Notes: generated from the sequence alone by a model not told the origin. Positions 33,446-48,691 are shown, counted from the stretch's first letter. The stretch: 64,000 bases of DNA from Candidatus Bathyarchaeia archaeon (GCA_049513715.1 JBEKVV010000003.1:384001-448000); one strand, 5' to 3'. Numbers and translations: made by a program.

Positions 33446-33727
33446 CTAAGGCAGCAGCAGACTTGAGAATAGCAGAATCGCAAGACCTAGCGATGCTGCA
33501 AGCATCCAAGCCTTGCTCAGGATTTCTCCCCATCTCTCTGTCATGAATAAGTAAACAATCATTGCGAATGACAAAAGGTCGACAGCCAGGAAGATTGCGA
33601 ATCTAGTTTCACTTACGCTGCTGGTTGCGTCGAGCGTCCATAGAAAAAGCGCGGAGGCTGCTTGAAGCAGGAGCAGCAATGTGACAATCAGCCTATTCCG
33701 ATCCATTTTGGACTCCTCCAAATTCAA
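33446..33727 (-). CDS. Small 3-TM membrane protein, last gene of the Rieske/cytochrome b operon
   Basis: Three hydrophobic helices; overlaps the end of cytochrome b; start may be ATG 33706. Confidence 0.65.
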   Translation of the reverse strand: MNLEESKMDRNRLIVTLLLLLQAASALFLWTLDATSSVSETRFAIFLAVDLLSFAMIVYLFMTERWGEILSKAWMLAASLGLAILLFSSLLLP

Positions 33728-35171
33728 AGAGAGGAATTCGTCTCTTGACTGAACCGATTCTCAATTCTAGTCTGTATAGAAAGATGAATGTGCCAAGGAA
33801 TACTGCTCCTAACAATGTCGCCGATAAACAGAGAGATGCGAGCGCCTCAAAATTGACTCCGCCAATAACTAATTGAGCTGAATTTCCGAAGAATGCGCTG
33901 ATTGAAACTGAACCTAGAGCAAGTAATCCGACTAGCATGGGCCCCGCCCATACGACAGTTATCGCTTGCGTGGAAGCCTTGTTCGTCGGTAGATGTCCCT
34001 TGATTTGCGAGTTTATGAGTTTGCTCAGGCCTAAAGAGATGAGCGCGATCAGTAATGCAGATCCCCCTAGCACTGTGGCAGCAACTTCTGTAGGGATGAC
34101 TTGGCCTGGTGTGATCAAGCCCCAATATGCAAGCACGAAGACTTCGCCAACAAATATTAGGCCAAGTGCTACAAAGAGAGGGCGGTTTCGGATTTTCCTC
34201 GTTTCGCCTCGGTCAATTACGGGTAGGAGGAATAGCAGTAGGAAGATTATGGTGACAACACTCATCGCGACCGGAAGGCCCGCACCTTCGAACACTGAAA
34301 TCTTCAGCAGCTGATAAATCCACAGAAAGTACCAGTCAGGTTGCGGAATAAACTGGGACGCAAGTTCCGGCGTATATTGTGGGGGTAGATTGAGTGGGAA
34401 GACCACTGAGATGAGAAGCATTATGGCGCCGAAGATCGCTGCCAGCTCTAACAGGTAGAGTGAAACATCAGGGAATATTGGAATTGTTCGACGGGGTTTT
34501 GTTTCGCCGAGGGCTGTTACTGGCTCTGAGATGCCGTGCGTTTCTAGCATGTACATTTTGACGGTCAAGAGAACTAACAGTACTGCAGGTAGGATGACCA
34601 CGTGTAAATCGTAGAAGCGTAGGAGTTGGGTAGCATCACCGCCAGCCCCAATTATTAGAAAACTTAGGAGTGATGAGAGCGGTGCTGGCAAGGCGTCTAT
34701 CATTCCTACGCCTACGTCGGTTGCTGACTTTGAAACCACCGTCCAAGGCAGCAAGTATCCAGTAAAACCAAAGCCCAATGTGACGAAGCCCATCACCATG
34801 CCCACAAACCACATAATCTCTCTAGGTTTCTTGTGGACTGAGACGAAGTACCCGCGCATCATGTGCATGAATGCGAGCATTATCATCGCATATGCTGTGT
34901 ATAGGTGGACGCTTTCCAAGAACCTTCCATAGAAAACGGATTGAAAGATGTATTGAGTTGACGGAAACGCTTCCATTGGGTTGGGAATGTAGTAGAGCAT
35001 CATTATCATCCCCGTGACGCCTTGAATGACGAAAGCGACTACAGTTAGGGCGCCGAGCCAGTAGAGGGGGTTGATGGCGTAACGAGGAACTGGCCTTAGC
35101 AAGGGGTGCGAGAGGCCCAGTCGAGTGTCAATCCATCTGAGCAACCTAGTGGGCTCGCTTTGTTCTTTCAC
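33693..35171 (-). CDS. Cytochrome b of a Rieske/cyt b complex (SoxN/PetB-like, extra C-terminal TM helices)
   Basis: H-x13-H in helix B, GYLLPW, RFYDLH, Qo motif PDWY. Confidence 0.93.
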   Translation of the reverse strand: MKEQSEPTRLLRWIDTRLGLSHPLLRPVPRYAINPLYWLGALTVVAFVIQGVTGMIMMLYYIPNPMEAFPSTQYIFQSVFYGRFLESVHLYTAYAMIMLAFMHMMRGYFVSVHKKPREIMWFVGMVMGFVTLGFGFTGYLLPWTVVSKSATDVGVGMIDALPAPLSSLLSFLIIGAGGDATQLLRFYDLHVVILPAVLLVLLTVKMYMLETHGISEPVTALGETKPRRTIPIFPDVSLYLLELAAIFGAIMLLISVVFPLNLPPQYTPELASQFIPQPDWYFLWIYQLLKISVFEGAGLPVAMSVVTIIFLLLFLLPVIDRGETRKIRNRPLFVALGLIFVGEVFVLAYWGLITPGQVIPTEVAATVLGGSALLIALISLGLSKLINSQIKGHLPTNKASTQAITVVWAGPMLVGLLALGSVSISAFFGNSAQLVIGGVNFEALASLCLSATLLGAVFLGTFIFLYRLELRIGSVKRRIPLFEFGGVQNGSE

Positions 35172-35177
35172 AGTTGT

Positions 35178-35819
35178 CTAACTCACAATGTTTCCGCCTT
35201 GAAGGTCCGAGGTGACATCGTTCGACCCGGTGTTGTGCCCGAAAATTGCTGGAGGCGTCATGCCAACCGCAAAGATTTCCCCAGAGTCGCTCAGTTGCAA
35301 TATGACTTGAGGTTGGGGCCGAGGGGAGGGCCCGGAGCGTACGCTAGCGCGGTGCAGAAAATCGAAGACGCTTCCATGGCAACAACAGTAACCCAACGGG
35401 GTGTCGGCTTTGAAGGCTGAATTGCATTGTGGACTGGTTCCGGTGGGTTGGAAGGAGTACACGCAGCCTAGGTGCTGGCACAAGACACTAAAGGCCACGA
35501 TATCTCCATCGGGCCCAACTCCACCTTCCGCCTTCTGCCCTAGCTTCACCAAGATGTTTGGCTCGTTGTCGAGCGGATAGTTGAAGACGACATGTTCATT
35601 CACCTTCAAGTCTCCCATTGACGCGACTTTCACTTTGGGAAATGTCGCTGGTCCGGTTCTGGCTGGGGGGGCCGAATTAGTAATGGCTTTTGTGATGGCC
35701 GCGATTCCACCGATAAGCAGAAGCCCCGATAAAGTGACTGCGAGCTTTAGAAAATTCCGTTTCCTCTCGTTCGGCCGCTTTTCCCTTGGATTGTCACTGG
35801 TGGCTTTCTTCGGGGGCAT
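35178..35819 (-). CDS. Rieske [2Fe-2S] protein (SoxL-like) with Tat-like anchor
   Basis: RKRNFLK + TM, CQHLGC, CCCHGS, GPSPRP. Confidence 0.92.
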   Translation of the reverse strand: MPPKKATSDNPREKRPNERKRNFLKLAVTLSGLLLIGGIAAITKAITNSAPPARTGPATFPKVKVASMGDLKVNEHVVFNYPLDNEPNILVKLGQKAEGGVGPDGDIVAFSVLCQHLGCVYSFQPTGTSPQCNSAFKADTPLGYCCCHGSVFDFLHRASVRSGPSPRPQPQVILQLSDSGEIFAVGMTPPAIFGHNTGSNDVTSDLQGGNIVS

Positions 35820-35823
35820 TGAA

Positions 35824-36975
35824 TCACCGTTTGGCTTTTGGCCTGGTAATTATCGCTCCAATAACCAATCCTACGATCAGAAGGCCGAAGCCAACCACAC
35901 CCGCTAAGGTAGCGCTAATGCCCGTTGGGGTCGACTGCGCAATTGTGACCGGAGCAGTTGGTGGCATTTGGTCGCTGATCGTTAGATCATACCACTGCGA
36001 CACTGACTTCACGTGCGCTGATTCCCCTAGTTTCCCGTTCCAAACCGCGAAAGCCACATAATAGTTAGAGCCAGTCTTCAGTTGCACTCTGTATTGAGAT
36101 GCGTCGGATACGGTGAAACTTCTAACCATCTCAACGGTCCATGTTTGATTGTTTTCTGAGAAATAGTTGCCTACGTGTATTACGAATGGGTCCGCGTAGG
36201 GGTCCAAGTTTGGGGAATCAGCCCCGAAGCTTCCACCTGTCACAAAGAAGCCGGTCGTGTTCGTGTAATCGCTTTCTGCATATGAGACATTGTTAGGAGG
36301 ATAGAGGGTGGTCCCGGCTGGGTCGGTGTAACCTCCTGGGAAGTCTGGGTCGCGCTGGTCGTTGTCGGTTGGAACTGACTGCCAATGCCAGATGTCGGCT
36401 GCTCCTCCGGTTATGGCGCCGTTCGTTGCTAACTCCATTACAGGTGACTGCTGCCTCTTCGAGGTGTCACCTAGGAACCAGAGCATTGCCACGCGGTCTT
36501 GGTAGTAGTATGTTGAGTTGTAGAACAACTGGTTTGCGGTTGCTGTACTCTCGTCGGTTAGGGGCAGTAGGGTTCCATTGGGTGCAGTGTAAAGCTCACC
36601 TTCCGAGCCGAAGGACGGCCCAACCTTATCATCCCAACGAAACAGCGCGTAAACATTGAACCCGTCATTAGCAGATTTCACAAGAACGTTCTGCGTGCGA
36701 CCTCCTCCTGGCGAAACGGAGGCAGCCAACGGGACGCTTGTCCACTCGATCGCGTTCCAGAATGATTCGTTTCCAGGCGCGTTGTAGTCGGGAGCTCCGT
36801 TCACTCGGTGAGACGTAATCTTCGGGAATGACCCTTGAGCAAACGCTCCCTGCATCGCAACGTTTGGCAGCGCTCCTGCCCAAACAATCATGATAAGAAA
36901 GACGAAGAGAACACGAGGACTTATCCTATTTAGAATCGTTGAAATCTCCTTTGAATTACGCGTTGAAGAATTCAT
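35824..36975 (-). CDS. DOMON-type heme b protein (EbdC/CbsA-like), membrane anchored
   Basis: FRWDD, DRVAMLW, Met in SPVMEL, DIWHW, WTVEMVR, AFAVWNG..GE....KSVS.W, C-terminal TM. Confidence 0.82.
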   Translation of the reverse strand: MNSSTRNSKEISTILNRISPRVLFVFLIMIVWAGALPNVAMQGAFAQGSFPKITSHRVNGAPDYNAPGNESFWNAIEWTSVPLAASVSPGGGRTQNVLVKSANDGFNVYALFRWDDKVGPSFGSEGELYTAPNGTLLPLTDESTATANQLFYNSTYYYQDRVAMLWFLGDTSKRQQSPVMELATNGAITGGAADIWHWQSVPTDNDQRDPDFPGGYTDPAGTTLYPPNNVSYAESDYTNTTGFFVTGGSFGADSPNLDPYADPFVIHVGNYFSENNQTWTVEMVRSFTVSDASQYRVQLKTGSNYYVAFAVWNGKLGESAHVKSVSQWYDLTISDQMPPTAPVTIAQSTPTGISATLAGVVGFGLLIVGLVIGAIITRPKAKR

Positions 36976-37233: not shown

Positions 37234-37779
37234 ATGCCGCTCTGGAACCTTGTGCTCAGCGGTTACCCGGCCTCAGGCAAGACTGTTCTGGCTCGTAGGC
37301 TTGTTGCTGAGCAACCGAACTTTCTACGCTTAAGTGTCGACGAAATGCGCGACATGTTCTTCGGCTCCAAGGAACCTTCCTCAGAAGAGGAGTTCATTTA
37401 CACTGGTTTTGCGTCTTTGCGGGATTTGGCGTTGAGGATGGGGCACAACGTTGTGCTAGATTGCACTGCCCCAAGAAACAGCACTAGAAATTTTCTGCTG
37501 AACACAAAAGTTCAGGGAGTCATCAGGCTTGTCGTGTTATTTGTTGTTGACAAAACGGAATTGGAGGGACGCAACCGAGAGCGAGGACTAGAGGGCGCAG
37601 TAAGCGCATGGGACAAAACTTGGGAAACCCCAACGCGAGACATTCCAGTCTTCAAATTCAGAAACAACTCCTTAACCGAATTTGAAACCAGCTACTACGT
37701 ACTGACAGACCTGCTCAGAAGCAAAGTTCACCCCTACAGGCGCAGGTTCCTTGGTAACATGTTTCCCCAAATAGGATAG
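37234..37779 (+). CDS. P-loop kinase (AAA_33-like)
   Basis: GYPASGKT, SVDEMR, VVLDCT. Confidence 0.8.
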   Translation: MPLWNLVLSGYPASGKTVLARRLVAEQPNFLRLSVDEMRDMFFGSKEPSSEEEFIYTGFASLRDLALRMGHNVVLDCTAPRNSTRNFLLNTKVQGVIRLVVLFVVDKTELEGRNRERGLEGAVSAWDKTWETPTRDIPVFKFRNNSLTEFETSYYVLTDLLRSKVHPYRRRFLGNMFPQIG

Positions 37780-37835: not shown

Positions 37836-37988
37836 GCCGGGGTAGCCTAGCTAGGTAAGGCGACAGAGCCCCGAGAACCGTAGACGTGTGATCGGGACGT
37901 TGAACCTCGAGATCACCGCGCTAGAAATGGGCCAAGACAGCTGTTGGTCCTCTGGGCCTCGTGGGTTCAAATCCCACCCCCGGCGCCA
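37836..37988 (+). tRNA. tRNA-Ser(CGA) with two introns (37867-37904 at 30/31; 37912-37938 at 37/38)
   Basis: Acceptor GCCGGGG/CCCCGGC + G + CCA; D arm GCCT/AGGC; after splicing ACAGC-CTCGAGA-GCTGT; variable arm GGTCC/GGGCC; T arm GTGGG-TTCAAAT-CCCAC. Confidence 0.88.
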
Positions 37989-37998
37989 ATTTACCGGT
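37986..37998. repeat. Left inverted repeat CCAATTTACCGGT
   Basis: Perfect 13-bp reverse complement of 43349-43361. Confidence 0.85.
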
Positions 37999-38103
37999 CG
38001 TTTTGTGTATGTGGGTCTAATGGTGCGCACCACCACAACTGACACAGAATTTCCCATTGAATGGCTTCACTTTGCGTGGCAATTGCAATTGCCAGGGGGC
38101 TTC

Positions 38104-38532
38104 TCAAGTTGTCGTTTGGGTCTGTTTCGGTTTCCACGTCACCGCTAGTATGCCTCCTACGAGGCCTAAGACTAAGCCCACGCCTAGCCCGCCCATAGCG
38201 CCGCCGAATATGCTAAGCGCTGAGAAGACTATGATCAACATGCCCCATGTTGAATGTTCCTGGGGCTTGCTGTTCAGCATCACTGCACTGATGATTACTA
38301 TGACCCCGAAGACTATTCCCAGGATCCCCAATAGCCCGAAACCCAGCCATCCCATCATTCCATAACTAGGAACGCTGTAGCCCATCATACCGCCCCAGCC
38401 GCGGTAGCCGCCCATCATTCCCCCAAACCAAAATGCGCCCATCATGGATGTCATTCCTCCGCCAAGGAGGATGAATAAGCCACCAATCAGTGAAAGTAGG
38501 TAAGCAGCCGTAGGCTTCTCTGTTAGTGTCAT
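38104..38532 (-). CDS. Gly/Met-rich 4-TM membrane protein
   Basis: PTAAYLLSLIGG, GGMMGG repeats, P..H..WG, LGLVGGILA. Confidence 0.8.
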   Translation of the reverse strand: MTLTEKPTAAYLLSLIGGLFILLGGGMTSMMGAFWFGGMMGGYRGWGGMMGYSVPSYGMMGWLGFGLLGILGIVFGVIVIISAVMLNSKPQEHSTWGMLIIVFSALSIFGGAMGGLGVGLVLGLVGGILAVTWKPKQTQTTT

Positions 38533-38720
38533 CTTCTAGATTTCAACTCCATGTGCTTAGTTTGATTCGACTTCCTGTAGGAACACTGCTCACTGATAGT
38601 CACCCCAATCTCTTTAACATGTAACTAATGATTGTGGCCCATCAATTTCGTTCTGCGGAATCATGTATCCCAACACGCCGTTGCCAACCGACAAACCAAA
38701 CCACTCCCATTAAGCTGTGA

Positions 38721-38755
38721 GTTCACACTGAAACACAGTGTGTTTCACCGTGTAC
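38721..38755. promoter_or_regulatory. Palindromic operator candidate in divergent intergenic region
   Basis: Perfect TGAAACACA-G-TGTGTTTCA (38729-38747) with imperfect outer arms, flanked by TTAAG elements. Confidence 0.55.
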
Positions 38756-38817
38756 ACCCATCTTAAGTGCGCTTCTTGAGTGGCATCACCAGACTCGAAC
38801 CGTTGATGTGAATATGC

Positions 38818-39567
38818 ATGGTTGACTGCGGGCGTTGCCACCGGAAATTCGACTCGTACTCTGGCCTACTCCAACACTATAAGGTAAAACATCCAAACGC
38901 GACGAACCTTAAGGACCTAGAAAGACAAGTCAGGACCGAGCAAGATACACGAGAACTAGTTTCAGCGAGTCTGCATTCGCATGGGCCCTCAAGAGCGAAG
39001 TTGATCGCATTCTCACTAATCGTGCTTATCGCGGTCAGCGTCACAGCTTACGTTGCGTTCGCACCAAAGGAAGTATTCACAACGACAGTCAGCGCGAAAG
39101 GGGTCGCTCCAGACTTCTCCTTACCGGATGTTAACGGCGGAACATTCACCCTTTCTGACTACAGGGGAAAGTCGAACGTCCTCTTGTTCTTCAACGAGGG
39201 TCTAAGTTGCGCTCCTTGCCTGCAGCAGATGCAGGGGTTGGACCAGCTTAATGCGGAATTTGGCAGAATGAATGTCGTGGTTGTTGATGTAACCGCTGAC
39301 CCTCTGCAGTTGCTGACGGATTGGACTAGGTCAAGTGGGCCCCAGTATGCCAAGGTTCTTTCCGACCAAAACCTCGCCGTTAGCAAAATGTACGGAATGC
39401 TGGGCCCAGACGTGAGCATGATGCCGTACTCCAAGCCTGGACACACGTTCGTTCTGGTAAACACATCGGGTGTCATAGTCTGGAGACAAGACTACGGGCC
39501 TAGCAACATGTTCGTTCCAAACAACCAAATCGTTGCCCTTGTCTCGAAGGCGCTCGGAGCCAGCTGA
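38818..39567 (+). CDS. C2H2 zinc finger + TM + redoxin-domain protein
   Basis: CGRC...H...H, TM helix, APDFSLPD, CAPC. Confidence 0.85.
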   Translation: MVDCGRCHRKFDSYSGLLQHYKVKHPNATNLKDLERQVRTEQDTRELVSASLHSHGPSRAKLIAFSLIVLIAVSVTAYVAFAPKEVFTTTVSAKGVAPDFSLPDVNGGTFTLSDYRGKSNVLLFFNEGLSCAPCLQQMQGLDQLNAEFGRMNVVVVDVTADPLQLLTDWTRSSGPQYAKVLSDQNLAVSKMYGMLGPDVSMMPYSKPGHTFVLVNTSGVIVWRQDYGPSNMFVPNNQIVALVSKALGAS

Positions 39568-39570
39568 GTA

Positions 39571-39837
39571 GTGTCAAAAGTCATTTTGCTGAGTAGCGTG
39601 GGTTGCACGCCCTGCCTGCGTGTTAAGCGGTACCTTAACGAGTTCCACGCGAAGAACCCTCAGATCGAAGTCGAGGAAATTGAATTTTCTTCTCAAGTTG
39701 GATCAAAACTTGCAGTGGAAAATGGAGTCCTTTACCCGCCCGCGGTCTTCCTTGAAGGCAAACTGATTGCCAAAGGAAAGATACACGCAGAGACGTTGAT
39801 CACGACCATCCAAGAGGCCGAAATGGTGAATGTTTGA
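39571..39837 (+). CDS. Glutaredoxin/thioredoxin-like protein
   Basis: CTPC near N-terminus, YPP cis-Pro loop. Confidence 0.85.
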   Translation: MSKVILLSSVGCTPCLRVKRYLNEFHAKNPQIEVEEIEFSSQVGSKLAVENGVLYPPAVFLEGKLIAKGKIHAETLITTIQEAEMVNV

Positions 39838-40718
39838 TGTCACTGCTTCTTCTCGCATACCTGATAATTGCATTTGTTGCAGGCGTGATTGCGCTTGCAA
39901 TGCCATGCTGCTTTAGCGTACTTCTCCCATCGTACTTCGCCCAGAGCTTTAGGCAGAAAACGCGGCTAATCGGAATGACTGTCATTTTCTCCTTAGGCAT
40001 CGCCACGATAATGCTTCCGCTCACCCTAGGCGTGGTAGCAGTTGCAGGAACGGTTACTTCGAATCACAGCTTGGTCTTCGTGGCCGGAGGGTTCCTGATG
40101 ATTGTGTTCGGGTTTCTCACTCTATGGGGGCAGGGTATGCTGCCGCAATTGAATTTGCCCGTCAGCCTGAAACGCACCGACGCATTTTCAGTTTACACCC
40201 TCGGAATCTTCTCAGGAGCAGCGACCTCGTGCTGCGCCCCTGTTCTAGCTGGAGTCCTCGTATTGTCCGCTTTATCAGCTGGAACCTTTGAGGGATTGCT
40301 AATTGGGTTCACGTACGTACTTGGGATGGTCTTTCCACTCTTCGCAATCGCCCTCGCATGGGACAGATATGTGCCTAACGGAGAAAATCCGTTGAAGGGG
40401 CGACTTCTACACTTCAATACATTCGGCCGCGAAGTTGCGATACACTCATCAAAGCTCATTTCCGGCCTGATGTTCGTCTTGATGGGAATCGTCACCGTTG
40501 CATTGGGCCTACTGGGGAGAATGATTCCGGCACCCGGCGCTGCGCAAATAGGGGCCATGCAGGCCCAGCTCGCGTATGTTCTGACGGCTTACTTCGTGAA
40601 TTCCTCTGGACTAGAGTTAGTTGGAGTTCTTGGTGTGGCGATAGTCATCATTGGCGTCTTCGCTCTGAAAAATCACATCAGAAAACTACTGGAACCCGCT
40701 AGAATCGAGGGGGACTAA
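39834..40718 (+). CDS. CcdA/DsbD-type transmembrane thiol reductase
   Basis: AMPCCFSVLLP and SCCAPVL in TM helices. Confidence 0.85.
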   Translation: MMSLLLLAYLIIAFVAGVIALAMPCCFSVLLPSYFAQSFRQKTRLIGMTVIFSLGIATIMLPLTLGVVAVAGTVTSNHSLVFVAGGFLMIVFGFLTLWGQGMLPQLNLPVSLKRTDAFSVYTLGIFSGAATSCCAPVLAGVLVLSALSAGTFEGLLIGFTYVLGMVFPLFAIALAWDRYVPNGENPLKGRLLHFNTFGREVAIHSSKLISGLMFVLMGIVTVALGLLGRMIPAPGAAQIGAMQAQLAYVLTAYFVNSSGLELVGVLGVAIVIIGVFALKNHIRKLLEPARIEGD

Positions 40719-40722
40719 AGCA

Positions 40723-40956
40723 TTGAAATCAACCCCAGTGACAGAACAAAGACCGATTGGGCGGGCAGTCTTATCACTATCCAATTGTGAAGGCGACGCA
40801 CCAGTTCAAATACTTCAGCGTACGCTGAAGAAGACACCTGGCATAAGGCATGTAGATCTCAATTATGCTGCTAACACAATAACTGTCGACTATGATCTAA
40901 CCAAAATCACATTCGAAGAGGTAAGGGCAGTCATCAAACAGCCCCTTCTAGCTTGA
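40723..40956 (+). CDS. HMA-domain protein with degenerate metal-binding motif
   Basis: L...PGI..V.LN......VDYD fold pattern; only one Cys (SNCEGD). Confidence 0.7.
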   Translation: MKSTPVTEQRPIGRAVLSLSNCEGDAPVQILQRTLKKTPGIRHVDLNYAANTITVDYDLTKITFEEVRAVIKQPLLA

Positions 40957-40983
40957 GTCTTTCGAAACGCGGGAGGAAGTAGA

Positions 40984-43065
40984 ATGGCCAAGGACCCGAT
41001 TTGTGGCATGTTTGTGGATGAGAAGACCGCGACCATAACCCGCACGATTCGGGGAACAAAATGGTACTTCTGCAGCGAAACCTGCGCCATGACATTCGAG
41101 AAACCAGAGGTCGAAATCAGACGTCTCAAGCTCTTGGTGATAATTGGCATCGCGCTCACAGTACCAACAGGTTTGTTCACATACGTTATGCTTCTTCCAT
41201 CCAACATCAACAATTATCTGCTCTTCATTTTGGAAACGCCAATACAGTTCATCGTGGGCTGGCGCTTCTACAGGGGCGCATACGACGCTCTAAGAAACCG
41301 AATGGGTAACATGGATCTTCTAATTGCCATTGGTACTACTGCCGCTTGGGCATACAGTACAGTAGTCACTTTTCTTCCGTCAGTCTTCCCCACGAGCGGA
41401 GCATACTTCGATACAGCTGCAGTGATCATCACCCTGGTCCTACTCGGGAACATGTTGGAGCATATCAGTAAGGGAAGAGCTTCCGAGGCAGTTCGCAAAC
41501 TCCTAGATCTACAGCCCAGGATGGCACACGTGATCCGCAATGGGGCTGAAGAGGAAGTTCCAGTAGAGTCGGTCAAAGTAGGCGATATTCTAGTTATCCG
41601 CCCCGGGGAAAGGATACCGGTTGACGGAGTGGTGACTGAAGGCAACTCTGCTGTTGACCAATCCGCCATCACCGGAGAAAGTATCCCCGTTGAAAAAACT
41701 GCTGGCGATGAAGTAATCGGAGCAACAATCAACACATTCGGTCTTCTCAACGTTCGAGCATCGAAGGTCGGAGCAGATACAGTACTATCAAAGATCGTTC
41801 AACTCGTCGAAGAAGCCCAGATGGCGCATGCGCCGATTCAACGCCTCGCCGACCAGGTTTCAACATACTTCGTGCCTGCAGTTATCGTAATCGCCACAGG
41901 GTCGGCGCTAGGTTGGTATTTCTTCGGTGGATTGGCGCTCAACTTTGCTTTATTGGCGTTTGTCTCAGTAATCGTCATCGCATGCCCGTGTGCACTTGGC
42001 ATCGCTACTCCAGCCGCAATTCTTGTCGGAACAGCCAAAGGCGCTCAGAATGGGATTCTCATCAAAGGCGGTGAGTATCTAGAGACAACCCATAAGATAC
42101 GGACAATTGTCTTTGACAAGACCGGCACTCTGACCAAAGGCAAACCGTCGGTAACAGATGTCATAGTCAGTGGAAAGCACACGGAACAAGAAGTACTTCA
42201 GCTGGCCGCCTCAGCCGAGAAAGGCTCAGAACATCCTCTCGGCCGAGCAGTCGTAGAAGCTGCTAAGAAAAAGGGCATAAGCATACCTGACGCGACCTCA
42301 TTCAAAGCCGTACCAGGCGCGGGCGTAGTAGCAGAGCACAATGGGAGAACCGTATTGCTGGGAAACCGAAAGCTGATGGCAAAATATGACATGAACCTCG
42401 CGCCAGTCGAAGCCGACATATCTGCGCTTGAGGAAGAGGGTAAAACGGTCATGGTTCTATCCGACGGCAAGGAACTCCTCGGTGTCATCGGCCTCGCAGA
42501 CACCCTCAAAGATGACGCTTCAGACACAGTCCGAGAATTGCAGCGAATGAAGATTGAAGTCGTAATGTTGACAGGCGACAACATCCGAACGGCCAAAACC
42601 GTTGCTAGCAAATTGGGCATAGACAGGGTTGTGGCAGACGTTCTGCCAGAGCAGAAGGAGAAGATTATCAGAGACTTGCAAAAGGAAGGTAAGGTTGTGG
42701 GCATGGTTGGAGACGGAATCAACGATGCGCCAGCTCTTGCAGCGTCCGACATTGGAATTGCCATCGGAAGCGGAACAGATGTCGCGGTCGAAACAGGCGG
42801 CATTGTTCTGATCAGGAACAACCTACGAGATGTGGTGATCGCCATCAAACTCAGTAAGGCAACTGTCAGCAAGATCAAGCAGAACCTGTTCTGGGCATTC
42901 TGCTACAACGTTGCACTCATCCCCATCGCTGCAGGTGCACTCGTGCCATTCCTCGGACCTGGTGTGTACAATTTCCTTCCATTCCTAGCTGCCGGAGCGA
43001 TGGCTTCAAGTTCAGTTACTGTCGTAAGCAACTCCCTTCTGCTGAACCGGTTCAAACCACGGTGA
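40984..43065 (+). CDS. copA: Cu(I)-exporting P1B-1 ATPase with N-terminal YHS/TRASH domain
   Basis: DPICGM...YFCS..C, TGES, CPC, DKTGT, SEHP, GDGIND, YN, MASSS. Confidence 0.95.
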
Positions 43066-43086
43066 AGATCTGGAGGTGAGATCGAA

Positions 43087-43230
43087 TTGGTTAAGGATCC
43101 AATTTGCGGAATGAAGGTTGACGAGAAGAAAGCGGCGGGTTCAAGCTCGTATTCAAGCAAAACCTACTACTTCTGCTCGCCATTCTGCAAGAACGAGTTC
43201 GACAAGAACCCAGCGAAATATGCCACCTAA
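43087..43230 (+). CDS. YHS/TRASH-domain metallochaperone (47 aa)
   Basis: Not in the ORF track: TTG start, MVKDPICGMKVDEKKAAGSSSYSSKTYYFCSPFCKNEFDKNPAKYAT; GGAGGTGA upstream. Confidence 0.9.
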   Translation: MVKDPICGMKVDEKKAAGSSSYSSKTYYFCSPFCKNEFDKNPAKYAT

Positions 43231-43306
43231 AGTTCATTCAGGCATCCCTCACATTGAGGGGGGAATGATGGATGTCTACGGGCAAGCGTCAACGAGTGAG
43301 ATATTG

Positions 43307-43331
43307 GTGGGTTCAAATCCCACCGTCCCCA
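43307..43331 (+). repeat. tRNA T-arm fragment (scar)
   Basis: GTGGGTTCAAATCCCACC identical over 18 bp to 37961-37978, then CGTCCCCA acceptor-like tail. Confidence 0.75.
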
Positions 43332-43348
43332 CGAAGTTGGTTATACGT

Positions 43349-43361
43349 ACCGGTAAATTGG
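43349..43361. repeat. Right inverted repeat ACCGGTAAATTGG
   Basis: Perfect reverse complement of 37986-37998. Confidence 0.85.
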
Positions 43362-43386
43362 GGTCAAATTCCCACCCCCGGCGCCA
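43359..43386 (+). repeat. Direct repeat of the tRNA-Ser 3' end (attR/TSD-like)
   Basis: TGGGGTCAAATTCCCACCCCCGGCGCCA vs TGGGTTCAAATCCCACCCCCGGCGCCA: one substitution and one insertion. Confidence 0.88.
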
Positions 43387-43473: not shown

Positions 43474-43749
43474 ATGCCCAACGAAGTTCATTGCGCACAT
43501 ATCCTCGTTAAAACCCAGACAGAGGCACAAGCTGCCATGGAGAGACTGAACAAGAAAGATAAGTTCGCGAACATTGCCAGAGAGATCTCAATCTGCCCTT
43601 CTGCAAAGCGCGGCGGAGACCTCGGCACTTTTACCAGAGGAAAAATGGTCAAAGAATTCGAACAGGCGGCGTTCGTCCTTCAGAAGGGACAGATCTCACC
43701 CATCGTGAAAACAAAATTCGGATACCACATTATAAAGAGACTAGAATAG
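43474..43749 (+). CDS. Parvulin-type peptidyl-prolyl isomerase
   Basis: HCAHILVK, SICPS..RGGDLG, MVKEFE, TKFGYHII. Confidence 0.95.
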   Translation: MPNEVHCAHILVKTQTEAQAAMERLNKKDKFANIAREISICPSAKRGGDLGTFTRGKMVKEFEQAAFVLQKGQISPIVKTKFGYHIIKRLE

Positions 43750-44055: not shown

Positions 44056-44144
44056 CCTGCACCTAACCATGGGATGGGAAACAGCCCTCTCGACTAAGCG
44101 TAGAAGAACACCGTCAGCCCGAAAAAAACGGCACAAGAGCTTCC

Positions 44145-44201
44145 GCGGGTTCAAATCCAGCCCGCGACGCCAAAATCCCCCGCGAATTCCACCCCGGCTC
44201 A
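44145..44201 (+). repeat. Two further degenerate tRNA 3'-end fragments
   Basis: GCGGGTTCAAATCCAGCCCGCGACGCCA (44145-44172) and GAATTCCACCCCGGCTCA (44184-44201). Confidence 0.55.
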
Positions 44202-45472: not shown

Positions 45473-46306
45473 ATGGTAACCACCATCTCAGGCCAGAAAA
45501 CGCAGGCAAATTCCCCGATGGTCTCATTGAGTTTACTCTGGCCATTGCGAATCTTCATGGGTTTGACCTTTCTATATGCGGGAGTGCAGCATCTAACTGA
45601 CCCGTCTTACTTCGACCCGTCGAAATCAGGCTATATTGGGCATTTGATTGCACAATATGCCGTCGGATCCCCAATTCACGACTTCCTTCTAGGAGTAGTT
45701 GGACCGAATGCTGTCCTTTTCGGGTACGGAGTCGCTGTTGGCGAGTCGTTGATTGGCATCGCCACTCTGCTAGGATTCCTTTTCAGGATTGCAGCATCAG
45801 CCGGGTTACTACTCAACTTAACTTTCTTCTTATCCGCAACCTGGACTGCTTTCCCGTTCTATTTCGGTTCGGACATAGTATTTGTCATGTGCTGGTTGAC
45901 CATCCTCTTGACAGGCCCTCAGCTGAAGCAAAGCGTAGACGCAGTCTTGGCGAGACGCTACCGTTTCTTGAGTTGGTTGGTATCCCAGCCCCAGACGAAT
46001 CCAAGAATGAACCTCATAACGCCCGCAATAACGCCAGTTCAAACCCAAACGAGTCAAGTTCAGGTAGCAGTTCCTGATGGAGCCAAGCTATATCCCGGCC
46101 AAGTTCGCGAAGTGAACCGAGCGTTCGAGCGCATTAAACAGCAGTTTGTTCTTCACCGCGAAACTCAAACGATACTCGAGTTTGTGCGGGCTTTTGTGAT
46201 TAGTCTGGGCGTCGACCGAAACGACGCGTCACAAATTCTCAGCGGACTGCAGAACATCATCAACAGGCACTCAACGGAAGGGGCATACACCAAACAGGGG
46301 ACATGA
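45473..46306 (+). CDS. DoxD/DoxX-family (TQO small subunit-like) membrane protein
   Basis: PLRIFMGLTFLYAG..H..DP.YF, GE..IG...LLG, W...P.YFGSD. Confidence 0.82.
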   Translation: MVTTISGQKTQANSPMVSLSLLWPLRIFMGLTFLYAGVQHLTDPSYFDPSKSGYIGHLIAQYAVGSPIHDFLLGVVGPNAVLFGYGVAVGESLIGIATLLGFLFRIAASAGLLLNLTFFLSATWTAFPFYFGSDIVFVMCWLTILLTGPQLKQSVDAVLARRYRFLSWLVSQPQTNPRMNLITPAITPVQTQTSQVQVAVPDGAKLYPGQVREVNRAFERIKQQFVLHRETQTILEFVRAFVISLGVDRNDASQILSGLQNIINRHSTEGAYTKQGT

Positions 46307-46307
46307 C

Positions 46308-47015
46308 ATGGCAAACACTACAGAAACTGAACAAATCACTGACAAGATTGCGACGGCCTATGGATTGCAAGTCTCAAGGGATGTCGTAGCTTCAGTCTTT
46401 GCGGGGCGCCCTAAACTTCCTGTACTGCTCTCCCGTGCTTCTTTCCGACCTGATCTTGATGTCCGAACGAAGCAAAGAACGCGAGTCCAAAAGGAACGTA
46501 GGAATTTCCTCCGTAGCATCTTCGGATTCGTTCTGCTTTCCGCATCAGCACTAGTCCTACTGAAGATAGCAACAGTCTCAAGCACACAACCTGAAACATC
46601 CACTACTGTGCCCAGCAATCCCAGTAATCCAAGTAACCCTAGCACTCAGCCTCAAACGCCCACTACTTTACCCGGCAACCCAAGTAATCCTAGCACTCAG
46701 ACCCGACCAATTATAGCCAACGCGGCGAATATTGCACCAGACCAGTCGATAACCTACAATGACCCGTCTCTAGGTCCGATTATTCTGATCCATTTAGATA
46801 ACGGGCAGTTTGTTGCTTACAGTTCAATCTGCACTCACGCAGGTTGCCAAGTCCAATTCGACCCATCCGGGAAAGAGATGATATGCCCTTGCCATGGCGC
46901 AACATTCGACCCATACAACAATGCGCAAGTCACAGGTGGACCAGCCCCCTACCCACTACAAAAAATCCCTATACAATACAACTCCTCAACAGGCAACATC
47001 TACCTGACCGGATGA
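46308..47015 (+). CDS. Rieske [2Fe-2S] protein with internal Tat motif and PSN-repeat linker
   Basis: RRNFL + TM, CTHAGC, CPCHGATF, GPAPYPL. Confidence 0.9.
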   Translation: MANTTETEQITDKIATAYGLQVSRDVVASVFAGRPKLPVLLSRASFRPDLDVRTKQRTRVQKERRNFLRSIFGFVLLSASALVLLKIATVSSTQPETSTTVPSNPSNPSNPSTQPQTPTTLPGNPSNPSTQTRPIIANAANIAPDQSITYNDPSLGPIILIHLDNGQFVAYSSICTHAGCQVQFDPSGKEMICPCHGATFDPYNNAQVTGGPAPYPLQKIPIQYNSSTGNIYLTG

Positions 47016-47231
47016 GCAAAAGTCATTCACTCCGTTACGTTCTTCCCGGCCAATCAGATCCACAACACTCGTGATCTCCTTCTTGCTTTGGGCTTCGTCC
47101 AATCGCGAGTACAACTTACCTTCCAGGTACCACTGGCTGGTTTTGCACTATGAGAACTGAGTTCTAAGACAACAGACTTCCTCGGGTCCTTTTATCAAAA
47201 CAGAACCAATCGTAATTTCGGTGATAACTGA

Positions 47232-47483
47232 ATGAGAAACACTTTGCCCGTTGTCCTAGCGGTGCTCCTAGCCTTGTCAGGAATCTTGGCAGCCGGGGGA
47301 ATAGCCATAATGAAAACGTACACAACTCCCACTACACCAATCCCCACTAGCACTCCAACAACAATTCCAACGACATCCTTCCATAATTTAGCCTCACAAC
47401 AACCAAGTCCCCTGAAACTCACACAACAACCCCCCACGAACCAAACCTGCTCAGGCGACGACTGCTCGCAGAGCGACAATTAA
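47232..47483 (+). CDS. Small membrane-anchored Pro/Thr-rich protein with C-terminal CSGDDC
   Basis: N-terminal TM helix, low-complexity stalk. Confidence 0.55.
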   Translation: MRNTLPVVLAVLLALSGILAAGGIAIMKTYTTPTTPIPTSTPTTIPTTSFHNLASQQPSPLKLTQQPPTNQTCSGDDCSQSDN

Positions 47484-47494
47484 GACTGAACAAA

Positions 47495-48691
47495 GTGGGA
47501 TCATTGCATACGAGGATTTGGCTTGCCCTAGCAGTGCTCGCTGGCGTTGCAAGCCTCTCCACTCTTCTTGTCTTACAAACCACACCAACTAATCCAATAT
47601 GGTCAGACTACGCACGGCTGCTCGGATGGGGAGGTCTGGCATCAGCAGCCGTACTCGTCGTTCAAGGGTTTTGGAAAGCCTCTCGAGACAAACAGTACAT
47701 GACTCAACTCCGAAATCAAACATCGCTACATCAACAAGACATTGTAAACAAGTATACTGAATCCCGTGTGCATGGATGGAGAGTGATGCACATCATCCTC
47801 TCAATCCTAGTGACAACACTAGCAGGACTTCATGGAATCCTCCTCCTTCCCAGACTTGCGTCTCCAACCATTGGCGTGACCTTCGGTTTAATCGGTCTAA
47901 TCGCACTTCTAGCTCTCGGCTTATCTGGAGCCGTCACCGAAGCGAATCGGAAGACGAAAACCTTCGGATCATTGAAGAAAACACATCTTTGGCTCATGGT
48001 CGGGGCACTGACATTAGCTGAACTTCACGCAGTCGCGGCCGGTTCAACGATATTCAGCCTCGGCTCAACCATCGCACTAGGTTTGTTGGTAGGTACAATC
48101 GGAATGATCGGCATAGGAGTTGAATATGCCTCCGTCAAAGCCGCACGACATTACTTCAAGACTGTACCGCAACCCATACCGAGCGATGGATGCAGCGTCA
48201 ATCTGGGACGGAGAGCGGCACTACAGAAGTTTGGCACACTGGCCGTAGGAACGCTCGTAGCCATCAGTTTCGCCGAAGCCGCCGCGCTCATGCCGAATGT
48301 CCTCTCGTCGCCGCAGAATCAACAGGCACAACAAAGCCTTGTTGTCGCTTCAATCACGCCCATTCAAACGAATCAGCAAGCCACAGGGAACAAGTTGGGA
48401 AATCTTTCGAACATACCGGTTAACAGCGCGTTCTACTTCAACTACCCTGCAGGTGTTTCCAATATCTTAATTCGGTCAAGTGACGGCAGTCTAGCTGCAT
48501 ATTCCTCAACATGCACGCATCAACCCTGCACAGTCGGATATGACGCTGGAACTGGGTTGATTAGATGCCCATGCCACGGTGCCTTATTTGATCCAAAACA
48601 AGGGGCAAGGGTTCTGCAGGGTCCCGCGCCTGCGCCACTCTCTTCAATTCAGCTTACCGTTGACAGTAATGGAGACATATGGTTAGCATAG
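47495..48691 (+). CDS. Polytopic His-containing membrane domain fused to a C-terminal Rieske domain
   Basis: TM His pairs (VMH..GLH; KTH..ELH), GRRAAL + TM, CTHQPC, CPCHGALF, GPAPAPL. Confidence 0.85.
   Translation: MGSLHTRIWLALAVLAGVASLSTLLVLQTTPTNPIWSDYARLLGWGGLASAAVLVVQGFWKASRDKQYMTQLRNQTSLHQQDIVNKYTESRVHGWRVMHIILSILVTTLAGLHGILLLPRLASPTIGVTFGLIGLIALLALGLSGAVTEANRKTKTFGSLKKTHLWLMVGALTLAELHAVAAGSTIFSLGSTIALGLLVGTIGMIGIGVEYASVKAARHYFKTVPQPIPSDGCSVNLGRRAALQKFGTLAVGTLVAISFAEAAALMPNVLSSPQNQQAQQSLVVASITPIQTNQQATGNKLGNLSNIPVNSAFYFNYPAGVSNILIRSSDGSLAAYSSTCTHQPCTVGYDAGTGLIRCPCHGALFDPKQGARVLQGPAPAPLSSIQLTVDSNGDIWLA

Follow-up and report, generated by a model that had tools for sequence, protein, structure and literature searches.

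The window (the whole stretch of 64,000 nucleotides analysed here, GCA_049513715.1, JBEKVV010000003.1:384001-448000, from a Candidatus Bathyarchaeia archaeon) carries at 37962-43386 a cluster of copper-related genes enclosed by the 3' end of a tRNA gene on the left and a displaced copy of that end on the right, with the halves of a short inverted repeat directly inside the two. These ends, and the recombination system to which they belong, are the subject of this work. The boundary features are:

37836-37988, plus strand: target tRNA, whose 3' end is the left attachment core (attL); Rfam RF00005, 40.4 bits
37986-37998, plus strand: left arm, CCA plus 10 bp, shorter than the arm of the autonomous element described below, which measures 17-18 bp
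43341-43361, plus strand: right arm, consisting of an AT-rich box, a near-palindrome and TGG, and belonging to a genome-wide site family
43359-43386, plus strand: attR, an element half and the displaced tRNA-Ser 3' end, assigned by sequence comparison

An earlier note on this DNA had placed the tRNA 3' end at 37962-37988, ATTTACCGGT at 37989-37998, its complement at 43349-43358 and the tRNA-end copy at 43359-43386, and had counted an inverted repeat of 10 bp, or of 13 bp with the CCA/TGG included; all of these assignments hold. The 27/28-bp duplication that it reported is also present, but the copy is not perfect: identity is confined to 17 bp (37972-37988 = 43370-43386), and the TGGG 5' of the right tRNA-end copy is part of the element arm, not of the tRNA copy. 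The right arm (43341-43358) is longer than had been noted, with 15 of 17 bases matching the left arm of the autonomous element. The left arm ends after 10 bp, cut off by a site of a second repeat family at 38001-38038. Position 43369 is T, where the tRNA and 82 of 88 distinct sites have A, and the ATT core variant is seen at only 1 of these 88. The genome contains the 10-mer itself 24 times, where uniform composition would predict about 5, and 23 of the 24 occurrences extend to the same 13-mer.

With two inferred introns spliced out in silico, the target tRNA is best interpreted as tRNA-Ser(CGA), CGA being the commonest anticodon over trial splicings (111, the next 66); the two introns, which lie around the anticodon, apparently cross-pair. 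Rfam at the gathering threshold gave no match in the window, and ARAGORN missed the target tRNA there, or mis-called it as Pro with its intron option. A restored tRNA at one end with a displaced 3' fragment at the other is the arrangement expected of a tRNA-targeting tyrosine integrase. GC content is equal inside and upstream of the element (0.506 and 0.509).

The arm leads to one particular recombinase. In the genome of the window (99.4% complete), the largest array of such sites, on contig C5, starts with a tRNA, the same left arm, an accessory gene (product P0002) and a recombinase gene (product P0001, 319 aa). P0001, the single intact recombinase of this kind noted in the genome, is a tyrosine recombinase by PF00589 (over cut-off), and its residues R160, H263, R266 and Y298, which we take to be the catalytic Arg, His-x-x-Arg and Tyr positions, are invariant across 22 homologues. 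It resembles XerA in sequence and fold. It is, however, not an XerA acting at an 11-6-11 dif site: it scores 181.6 bits against the XerA equivalog NF040815 (cut-off 220), is patchy in the class (19 of 401 genomes) and is tied to tRNA ends. An integron integrase was likewise rejected, as the score against IntI (TIGR02249) is 42.5 bits with a cut-off of 265 and the sites lack attC hairpins (3 of 47 right-type sites folded, both strands, z -0.8 to +1.2). So was a suicidal integrase of the SSV/pTN3 type, P0001 being whole and lying about 570 bases behind attL.

At 21 of 24 recombinase loci the tRNA 3' end and the arm stand directly before the accessory and recombinase genes (18 found by pattern and 3 by eye, one with 1 mismatch); of the other three, one is interrupted by an N gap and lacks the motif, and the remaining two break off inside the module at contig ends. 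Integrase genes within such tRNA ends, which the earlier note had proposed to look for, are thus present in related loci, where a cognate integrase is linked to the same ends, though not in this copy. Behind the arm these loci have an AT-rich, TATA-like box, with the accessory gene some 35-100 bases farther along. A bacterial-type promoter scan, a method ill-suited to archaea, gave nothing above shuffles. For the accessory protein a strand-helix-helix-like start is predicted, followed by a long helix (coiled coil) and a winged helix; it matches no Pfam family over cut-off, its fold matches are weak, with none at E 0.001, and its Atlas clusters are unnamed. Viral contigs yielded the recombinase at 1 locus only, in integrated form, and the search of genome contigs for related loci also gave a single one, in Hadesarchaea.

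The right end belongs to a family of sites spread over the genome, in which it is one of 47 right-type profile matches (E 0.001). Of 33 neighbouring site pairs within 25 kb, 31 are co-oriented, and 34 of the 47 sites lie at most 12 kb from a contig end. A stricter pattern retained 37 sites, against 1 match in the reversed genome: 27 carry a tail that is not tRNA, 5 a tRNA-Leu end, 2 a tRNA-Ser end and 3 another. Only 2 of 34 tRNA-like ends in the genome bear the arm, namely the tRNA of the window and the one that heads the recombinase. Outside this genome 47 distinct right ends have the conserved arm, and the site pattern is found in 19 of 58 genomes of the family and 14 of 22 within the genus, with 0 matches in the reversed control. 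On C5 (160000-220100) a 60-kb co-oriented array stands behind the recombinase, with tRNA-Leu, tRNA-Ser and non-tRNA tails intermixed.

Relatives preserve the full, empty and junction forms of such elements. At the orthologous tRNA (87% identical) the congener G052 holds a 28.7-kb autonomous element whose arms both read ACTAGT, not ACCGGT. In the congeners G044 and G055 the bases behind its right end directly follow the tRNA, so that these two are empty alleles; they match the flank of G052 and G049. The latter has a 3.2-kb element at the same tRNA with no recombinase match, and G149, from another family, has a 5.5-kb autonomous element with a perfect 14-bp inverted repeat. In the window and in G052, G049 and G149 alike, the displaced tRNA end matches the left tRNA. 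At a further locus (G053:C30) no more than about 20 bases separate a tRNA with left arm from the right-type site behind it, which amounts to a nearly empty element. The orthologous tRNA 3' end could be read in 13 of 19 congeners, 11 without and 2 with the arm.

In the integrated form, then, tRNA and arm stand on the left, with the module directly behind the left arm, and arm and displaced tRNA end on the right; in the free-type junction the order is arm, TGG, T-loop half, tRNA 3' end with CCA, and arm. This predicted arm-core-arm (attP-type) junction is present in 12 metagenome contigs and one congener genome; the full tRNA is absent from all 12 contigs, and in one of them the accessory gene directly follows the junction. 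The pattern was not found in viral contigs (0 matches). One junction folds strongly (z -4.2), because the junction is the inverted repeat itself. The suggestion of the earlier note that attP might be a tRNA end flanked by an inverted repeat is thus supported, such junctions being present and the arm being tied to one tyrosine-recombinase module. The recombinase family presumably acts on these sites.

Integration genes are absent from the copper segment itself, while attL and attR are kept, as in a cis-mobilizable element (CIME). As the earlier note had said, no integrase, transposase or Cas1 lies inside (Pfam of the seven cargo open reading frames, tblastn searches): tblastn with P0001 and P0002 gave no match or module remnant inside the element, and 10 Cas1 proteins gave a best E of 0.23 in the whole window. 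No family B DNA polymerase (PolB) is found by Pfam among the seven reading frames either, the rest of the genome not having been searched for PolB. The window holds no autonomous element adjoining the copper unit. The reading that we favour, with a probability of about 0.75, is that the segment is bounded by attL and attR of a tRNA-Ser/Leu tyrosine-recombinase family and is a likely recombinase-less, immobilised, CIME-like relic that contains the copper cluster.

The following mechanism may be proposed. The 3' target region is noted to be without symmetry in the accessible part of a review (PMC8371274). As the tRNA 3' end seems to lack a dyad, the element would supply one by an inverted copy of the CCA end and its flank. 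Each arm would consist of an AT-rich box and a 12-bp near-palindrome, to which the recombinase or the accessory protein probably binds, and crossover would take place in the shared ~20 bp from T-loop to CCA, at cut positions that are themselves conjectural. At this locus an element would have integrated at tRNA-Ser; a deletion with one end at a casposon-type site would then have removed the two-gene module, the genus-wide copper cluster lying inside. Tyrosine recombinases generally need matching overlap sequences; if 43369 falls in the overlap, excision is likely to be impaired, and the short left arm together with the core mismatch would hinder excision by the single intact recombinase on C5. 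The cut left arm and the rare core substitution suggest that this copy is grounded, and the copper locus is probably a dead island.

Several observations weigh against this interpretation. No remnant of the recombinase module was found inside the element, although this copy is presumed to have once held it. An exact empty allele of the window, with the tRNA followed by the flank of the peptidyl-prolyl isomerase (PPIase) gene, was found in no relative, three congeners have just 4 bases in common behind the tRNA, and 15 congener loci with the PPIase neighbours have no adjoining tRNA end; gene order is not conserved between the species, which explains the lack of such an allele. The empty site that the earlier note had proposed to look for is hence in hand for the element family (G044, G055) and was not found for this copy. 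Of 4 related elements, G052 alone shows clean covariation of the arms; in G049, G149 and G044 the central two bases differ between the ends, which is what one would expect of arms that each form their own palindromic binding site. Of the 12 junction contigs, 11 are without the recombinase module and none has terminal repeats; as several also share flanks, and so are not independent, they may be tandem insertions rather than circles, though the junction is real in both cases. Finally, among the 14 congeners that show the site pattern, 9 gave no recombinase match, as far as these incomplete genomes can be matched.

Eight of the 24 sequencing runs listed as matching the window, all of them assembled contigs from peat or wetland samples that may be the source of its genome, gave no empty-site or circle joint, a result that speaks neither for nor against such forms, contigs being prone to drop rare ones; depth inside the element equals that of the flanks. 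No RNA data set was among the matches listed. A joint from 38027 to 43348 with 28 other letters, considered as an excision product, is best read as a different locus with the two repeat families in tandem, an arrangement also seen on C2, C5 and C11.

The cargo and its surroundings comprise the following features:

37234-37779, plus strand: AAA_33 kinase-like host gene, outside the element; Pfam PF13671, E 5e-17
38001-38038, plus strand: site of the second repeat family, with GT-rich arm, 14-bp core (38013-38026) and AC-rich arm; inverted tRNA-Gly-like end copy
38104-38532, minus strand: cargo, DUF6114 membrane protein; Pfam PF19609
38818-39567, plus strand: cargo, AhpC/TSA redoxin; Pfam PF00578, E 2e-20
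39571-39837, plus strand: cargo, small thioredoxin/glutaredoxin-like protein; Pfam PF13192, below the curated cut-off
39834-40718, plus strand: cargo, CcdA/DsbD-like membrane protein; Pfam PF02683, weak, E 9e-4
40723-40956, plus strand: cargo, HMA-domain metallochaperone-like protein; Pfam PF00403
40984-43065, plus strand: cargo, P1B heavy-metal ATPase with N-terminal YHS domain; Pfam PF00122, PF00702 and PF04945
43087-43230, plus strand: cargo, YHS-domain protein; Pfam PF04945, E 1.6e-15
43307-43332, plus strand: 3' fragment of a different tRNA (Pro-like end), by sequence comparison
43474-43749, plus strand: parvulin-type PPIase host gene, outside the element; Pfam PF00639

The P1B ATPase is presumably a copper exporter, the metal being assigned from its motifs (CPC). 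The AAA_33 gene precedes the same tRNA in several congeners, and the PPIase gene is matched in 14 of 22. Farther out lie genes for Rieske, cytochrome b and EB_dh-domain proteins (33693-36975, upstream) and for DoxD and two Rieske proteins (45473-48691, downstream). An imperfect inverted repeat of 28 + 28 bases (38710-38766), in the gap that separates the divergently oriented DUF6114 gene from the redoxin-ATPase operon, is a candidate operator for a regulator. The Pro-like tRNA fragment is a relic of another insertion, and its pairing with a right arm recurs at 3 of the 37 sites of the strict search; fragments of other tRNA 3' ends just inside a right arm also occur near C5 206500, C3 306870 and C1 892320, which suggests that a third system, also directed at tRNAs, is nested within these ends. 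A degenerate tRNA-like 3' fragment lies downstream of the PPIase gene at 44144-44173.

In relatives the copper cluster has other surroundings: at 0 of 12 loci examined is it accompanied by either repeat family or by an adjoining target tRNA, although at least four cluster genes are present at 7 of them. Identity along the cluster is a mosaic (redoxin 50-62%, ATPase 57-95%), and in one relative (G041:C25) the cluster has 93% DNA identity along 2.6 kb and has lost most of the CcdA-like gene. Since it is present in relatives without these ends, and in view of the mosaic identity, the cluster is a module of the whole genus whose position varies and which lies inside this element by coincidence. 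What the earlier note had named as evidence against its own reading is accordingly seen in part: relatives carry the copper genes without the repeats, but the inverted repeat is conserved in related elements.

A broader and less probable scheme would make the window the tRNA-anchored end of an archaeal cassette system unrelated to integrons. In it an XerA-like recombinase, together with a fused accessory factor, would act on an attP derived from the CCA end of a tRNA in inverted form; a second type of tail that needs no tRNA (27 of 37 sites here) would have evolved, through which groups of accessory genes could be stacked, excised and rearranged at dozens of genomic sites, and recombinase-less units such as the copper island would be moved in trans. 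The narrower proposal, that the C5 recombinase still moves the 5.4-kb copper unit in trans, as a non-autonomous cassette and one module of an integron-like system, appears unlikely. It would account for the retention of both ends and of the 13-bp dyad, for an intact recombinase in the same genome, for other recombinase-less elements with the same ends (G049 and G053) and for the resemblance of the right end to a cassette end in the C5 array (75 bp at 87%); the ATPase, moreover, is 92-95% identical to those of three congeners whose AAA_33 gene is only 69-71% identical, which hints at recent exchange. Yet the cluster is without these ends at all 12 relatives' loci, its mosaic identity fits piecemeal exchange, and this copy's ends are damaged by the shortened left arm and by a core substitution found at 1 of 88 sites. 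Movement of the copper unit in trans, as the earlier note had proposed, is unsupported, because the cluster occurs in relatives without these ends.

It seems improbable that the arm is merely the promoter or operator of the accessory-recombinase operon, with the left and right ends stemming from separate events. The TATA-like box between arm and accessory gene would suit such a role, as would the accessory protein, which looks like a DNA-binding regulator (a prediction, with no fold match at E 0.001). The arm is nevertheless conserved at right ends with no operon behind them (37 in this genome and 47 distinct ones elsewhere) and lies on both sides of the 12 junctions, and displaced ends match their left tRNA in four elements.

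Slightly less probable still is the mini-casposon that the earlier note had put forward, in which the 10-13 bp repeat would be a terminal inverted repeat, the tRNA-end copy a target-site duplication, and a Cas1-type casposase would act in trans. The idea was a fair one, since Cas1 is common in the genus (12 of 22 congeners) and the genome holds five C-terminal Cas1 relics, and casposons are reported at tRNA 3' regions in the accessible parts of two papers (PMC4779613, PMC5137440). A right-type site, alone or co-oriented, is likewise present at 3 of 16 Cas1 loci, in one case about 200 bases from the gene; a right-type site read in reverse starts with GGGGAT and has a 14-base tail in most copies. 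Even so, the genome has no intact Cas1 (PF01867, E 0.001), and a tRNA-plus-arm end is found at 0 of the 16 Cas1 loci, some of which may be CRISPR genes rather than casposases, whereas the other repeat family is found at 11. That family, with GT- and AC-rich arms and a 14-base core, has 48 seed matches in the genome. At one locus (G041:C8), which has an intact Cas1 gene, a right-type site lies about 200 bases downstream of that gene and is enclosed by two sites from the other family; there both systems pile into each other. Right-type sites are co-oriented rather than paired in inversion, and 0 tails are followed by an inverted end; the site was accordingly rejected as a GGGGAT terminal repeat with a 14-bp duplication, no inverted partner being found. 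The arm, for its part, heads a tyrosine-recombinase module at 21 of 24 loci. The casposon reading was rejected.

In those two papers, as far as accessible, casposon duplications are 14-15 bp, with one case of 35 bp, and the repeat length reported is 37 bp; the imperfect 27/28-bp duplication with a 10-13 bp repeat in the window differs from the published exact duplications with long repeats. Family 2 casposons of Methanosarcina and Aciduliprofundum are alike in their tRNA 3' targets, including tRNA-Leu, and in a direct repeat that abuts an inverted repeat, but have Cas1 and PolB, whereas the ends described here track a tyrosine recombinase (PMC4779613, PMC5137440). At a tRNA, a direct repeat with a short inverted repeat directly beside it does not by itself mark a casposon. 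A chance inverted repeat beside an ordinary tRNA-end duplication can be set aside: only 10 bp of repeat extend beyond the duplication here, but the same motif stands at the same offset at 21 recombinase loci and dozens of right ends, with 0-1 in reversed controls.

Among known systems, compared here from the accessible parts of the papers, CIMEs and site-specific accretion (PMC5704250) share the loss of integration genes, the retention of attL and attR at a tRNA 3' end and the tandem stacks; they are known from bacterial integrative and conjugative or mobilizable elements with conjugation, while the present case is in an archaeon, shows no transfer genes, for which no search was made, and has attachment sites with a conserved inverted arm. 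The ssrA islands of Dehalococcoides (PMC3146451) are similar in their tandem placement behind one RNA gene, some without the module, in an element-derived motif upstream of displaced 3' ends with inferred T-loop insertion, and in an integration module adjoining attL; they differ in their serine recombinase, tmRNA target and six-gene module, and no inverted arm is reported in the part available. Integrases of the SNJ2 family (PMC5861418), compared by description, are likewise unsplit tyrosine integrases with a short core at a tRNA 3' end, co-transcribed coiled-coil/winged-helix accessories and a non-canonical residue at the His/Trp position, but SNJ2 is a haloarchaeal virus that uses tRNA-Met, a 14-bp core and two accessory genes. 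The tycheposons of Prochlorococcus (bioRxiv 10.1101/2020.12.28.424599) also have tRNA-specific tyrosine integrases, with remnants and partial tRNAs building islands; they are cyanobacterial, carry replication modules and, in the text available, are not reported to have a conserved inverted arm. Integrons, including archaeal ones (PMC9668308), resemble the C5 array in having one tyrosine recombinase at the head of co-oriented sites between accessory genes, but here the recombinase is not IntI, the multi-gene blocks lie in both orientations and the array is anchored at a tRNA.

The literature searched, which included papers on Thaumarchaeota and Bathyarchaeia in their accessible parts and left subscription papers and supplements outside, gave no description of the family or of an arm-flanked site. 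The archaeal integrase family is apparently undescribed, although tables of integrated elements (PMC6563490, PMC8371274) could list members. The present analysis names an enzyme family and a site anatomy for tRNA-anchored islands of the Bathyarchaeia, an abundant and mostly uncultured archaeal class. Because full, empty and junction forms are in hand, the system is directly testable in vitro, and a compact recombinase for conserved tRNA-Ser/Leu ends could serve as a genetic tool in these archaea.

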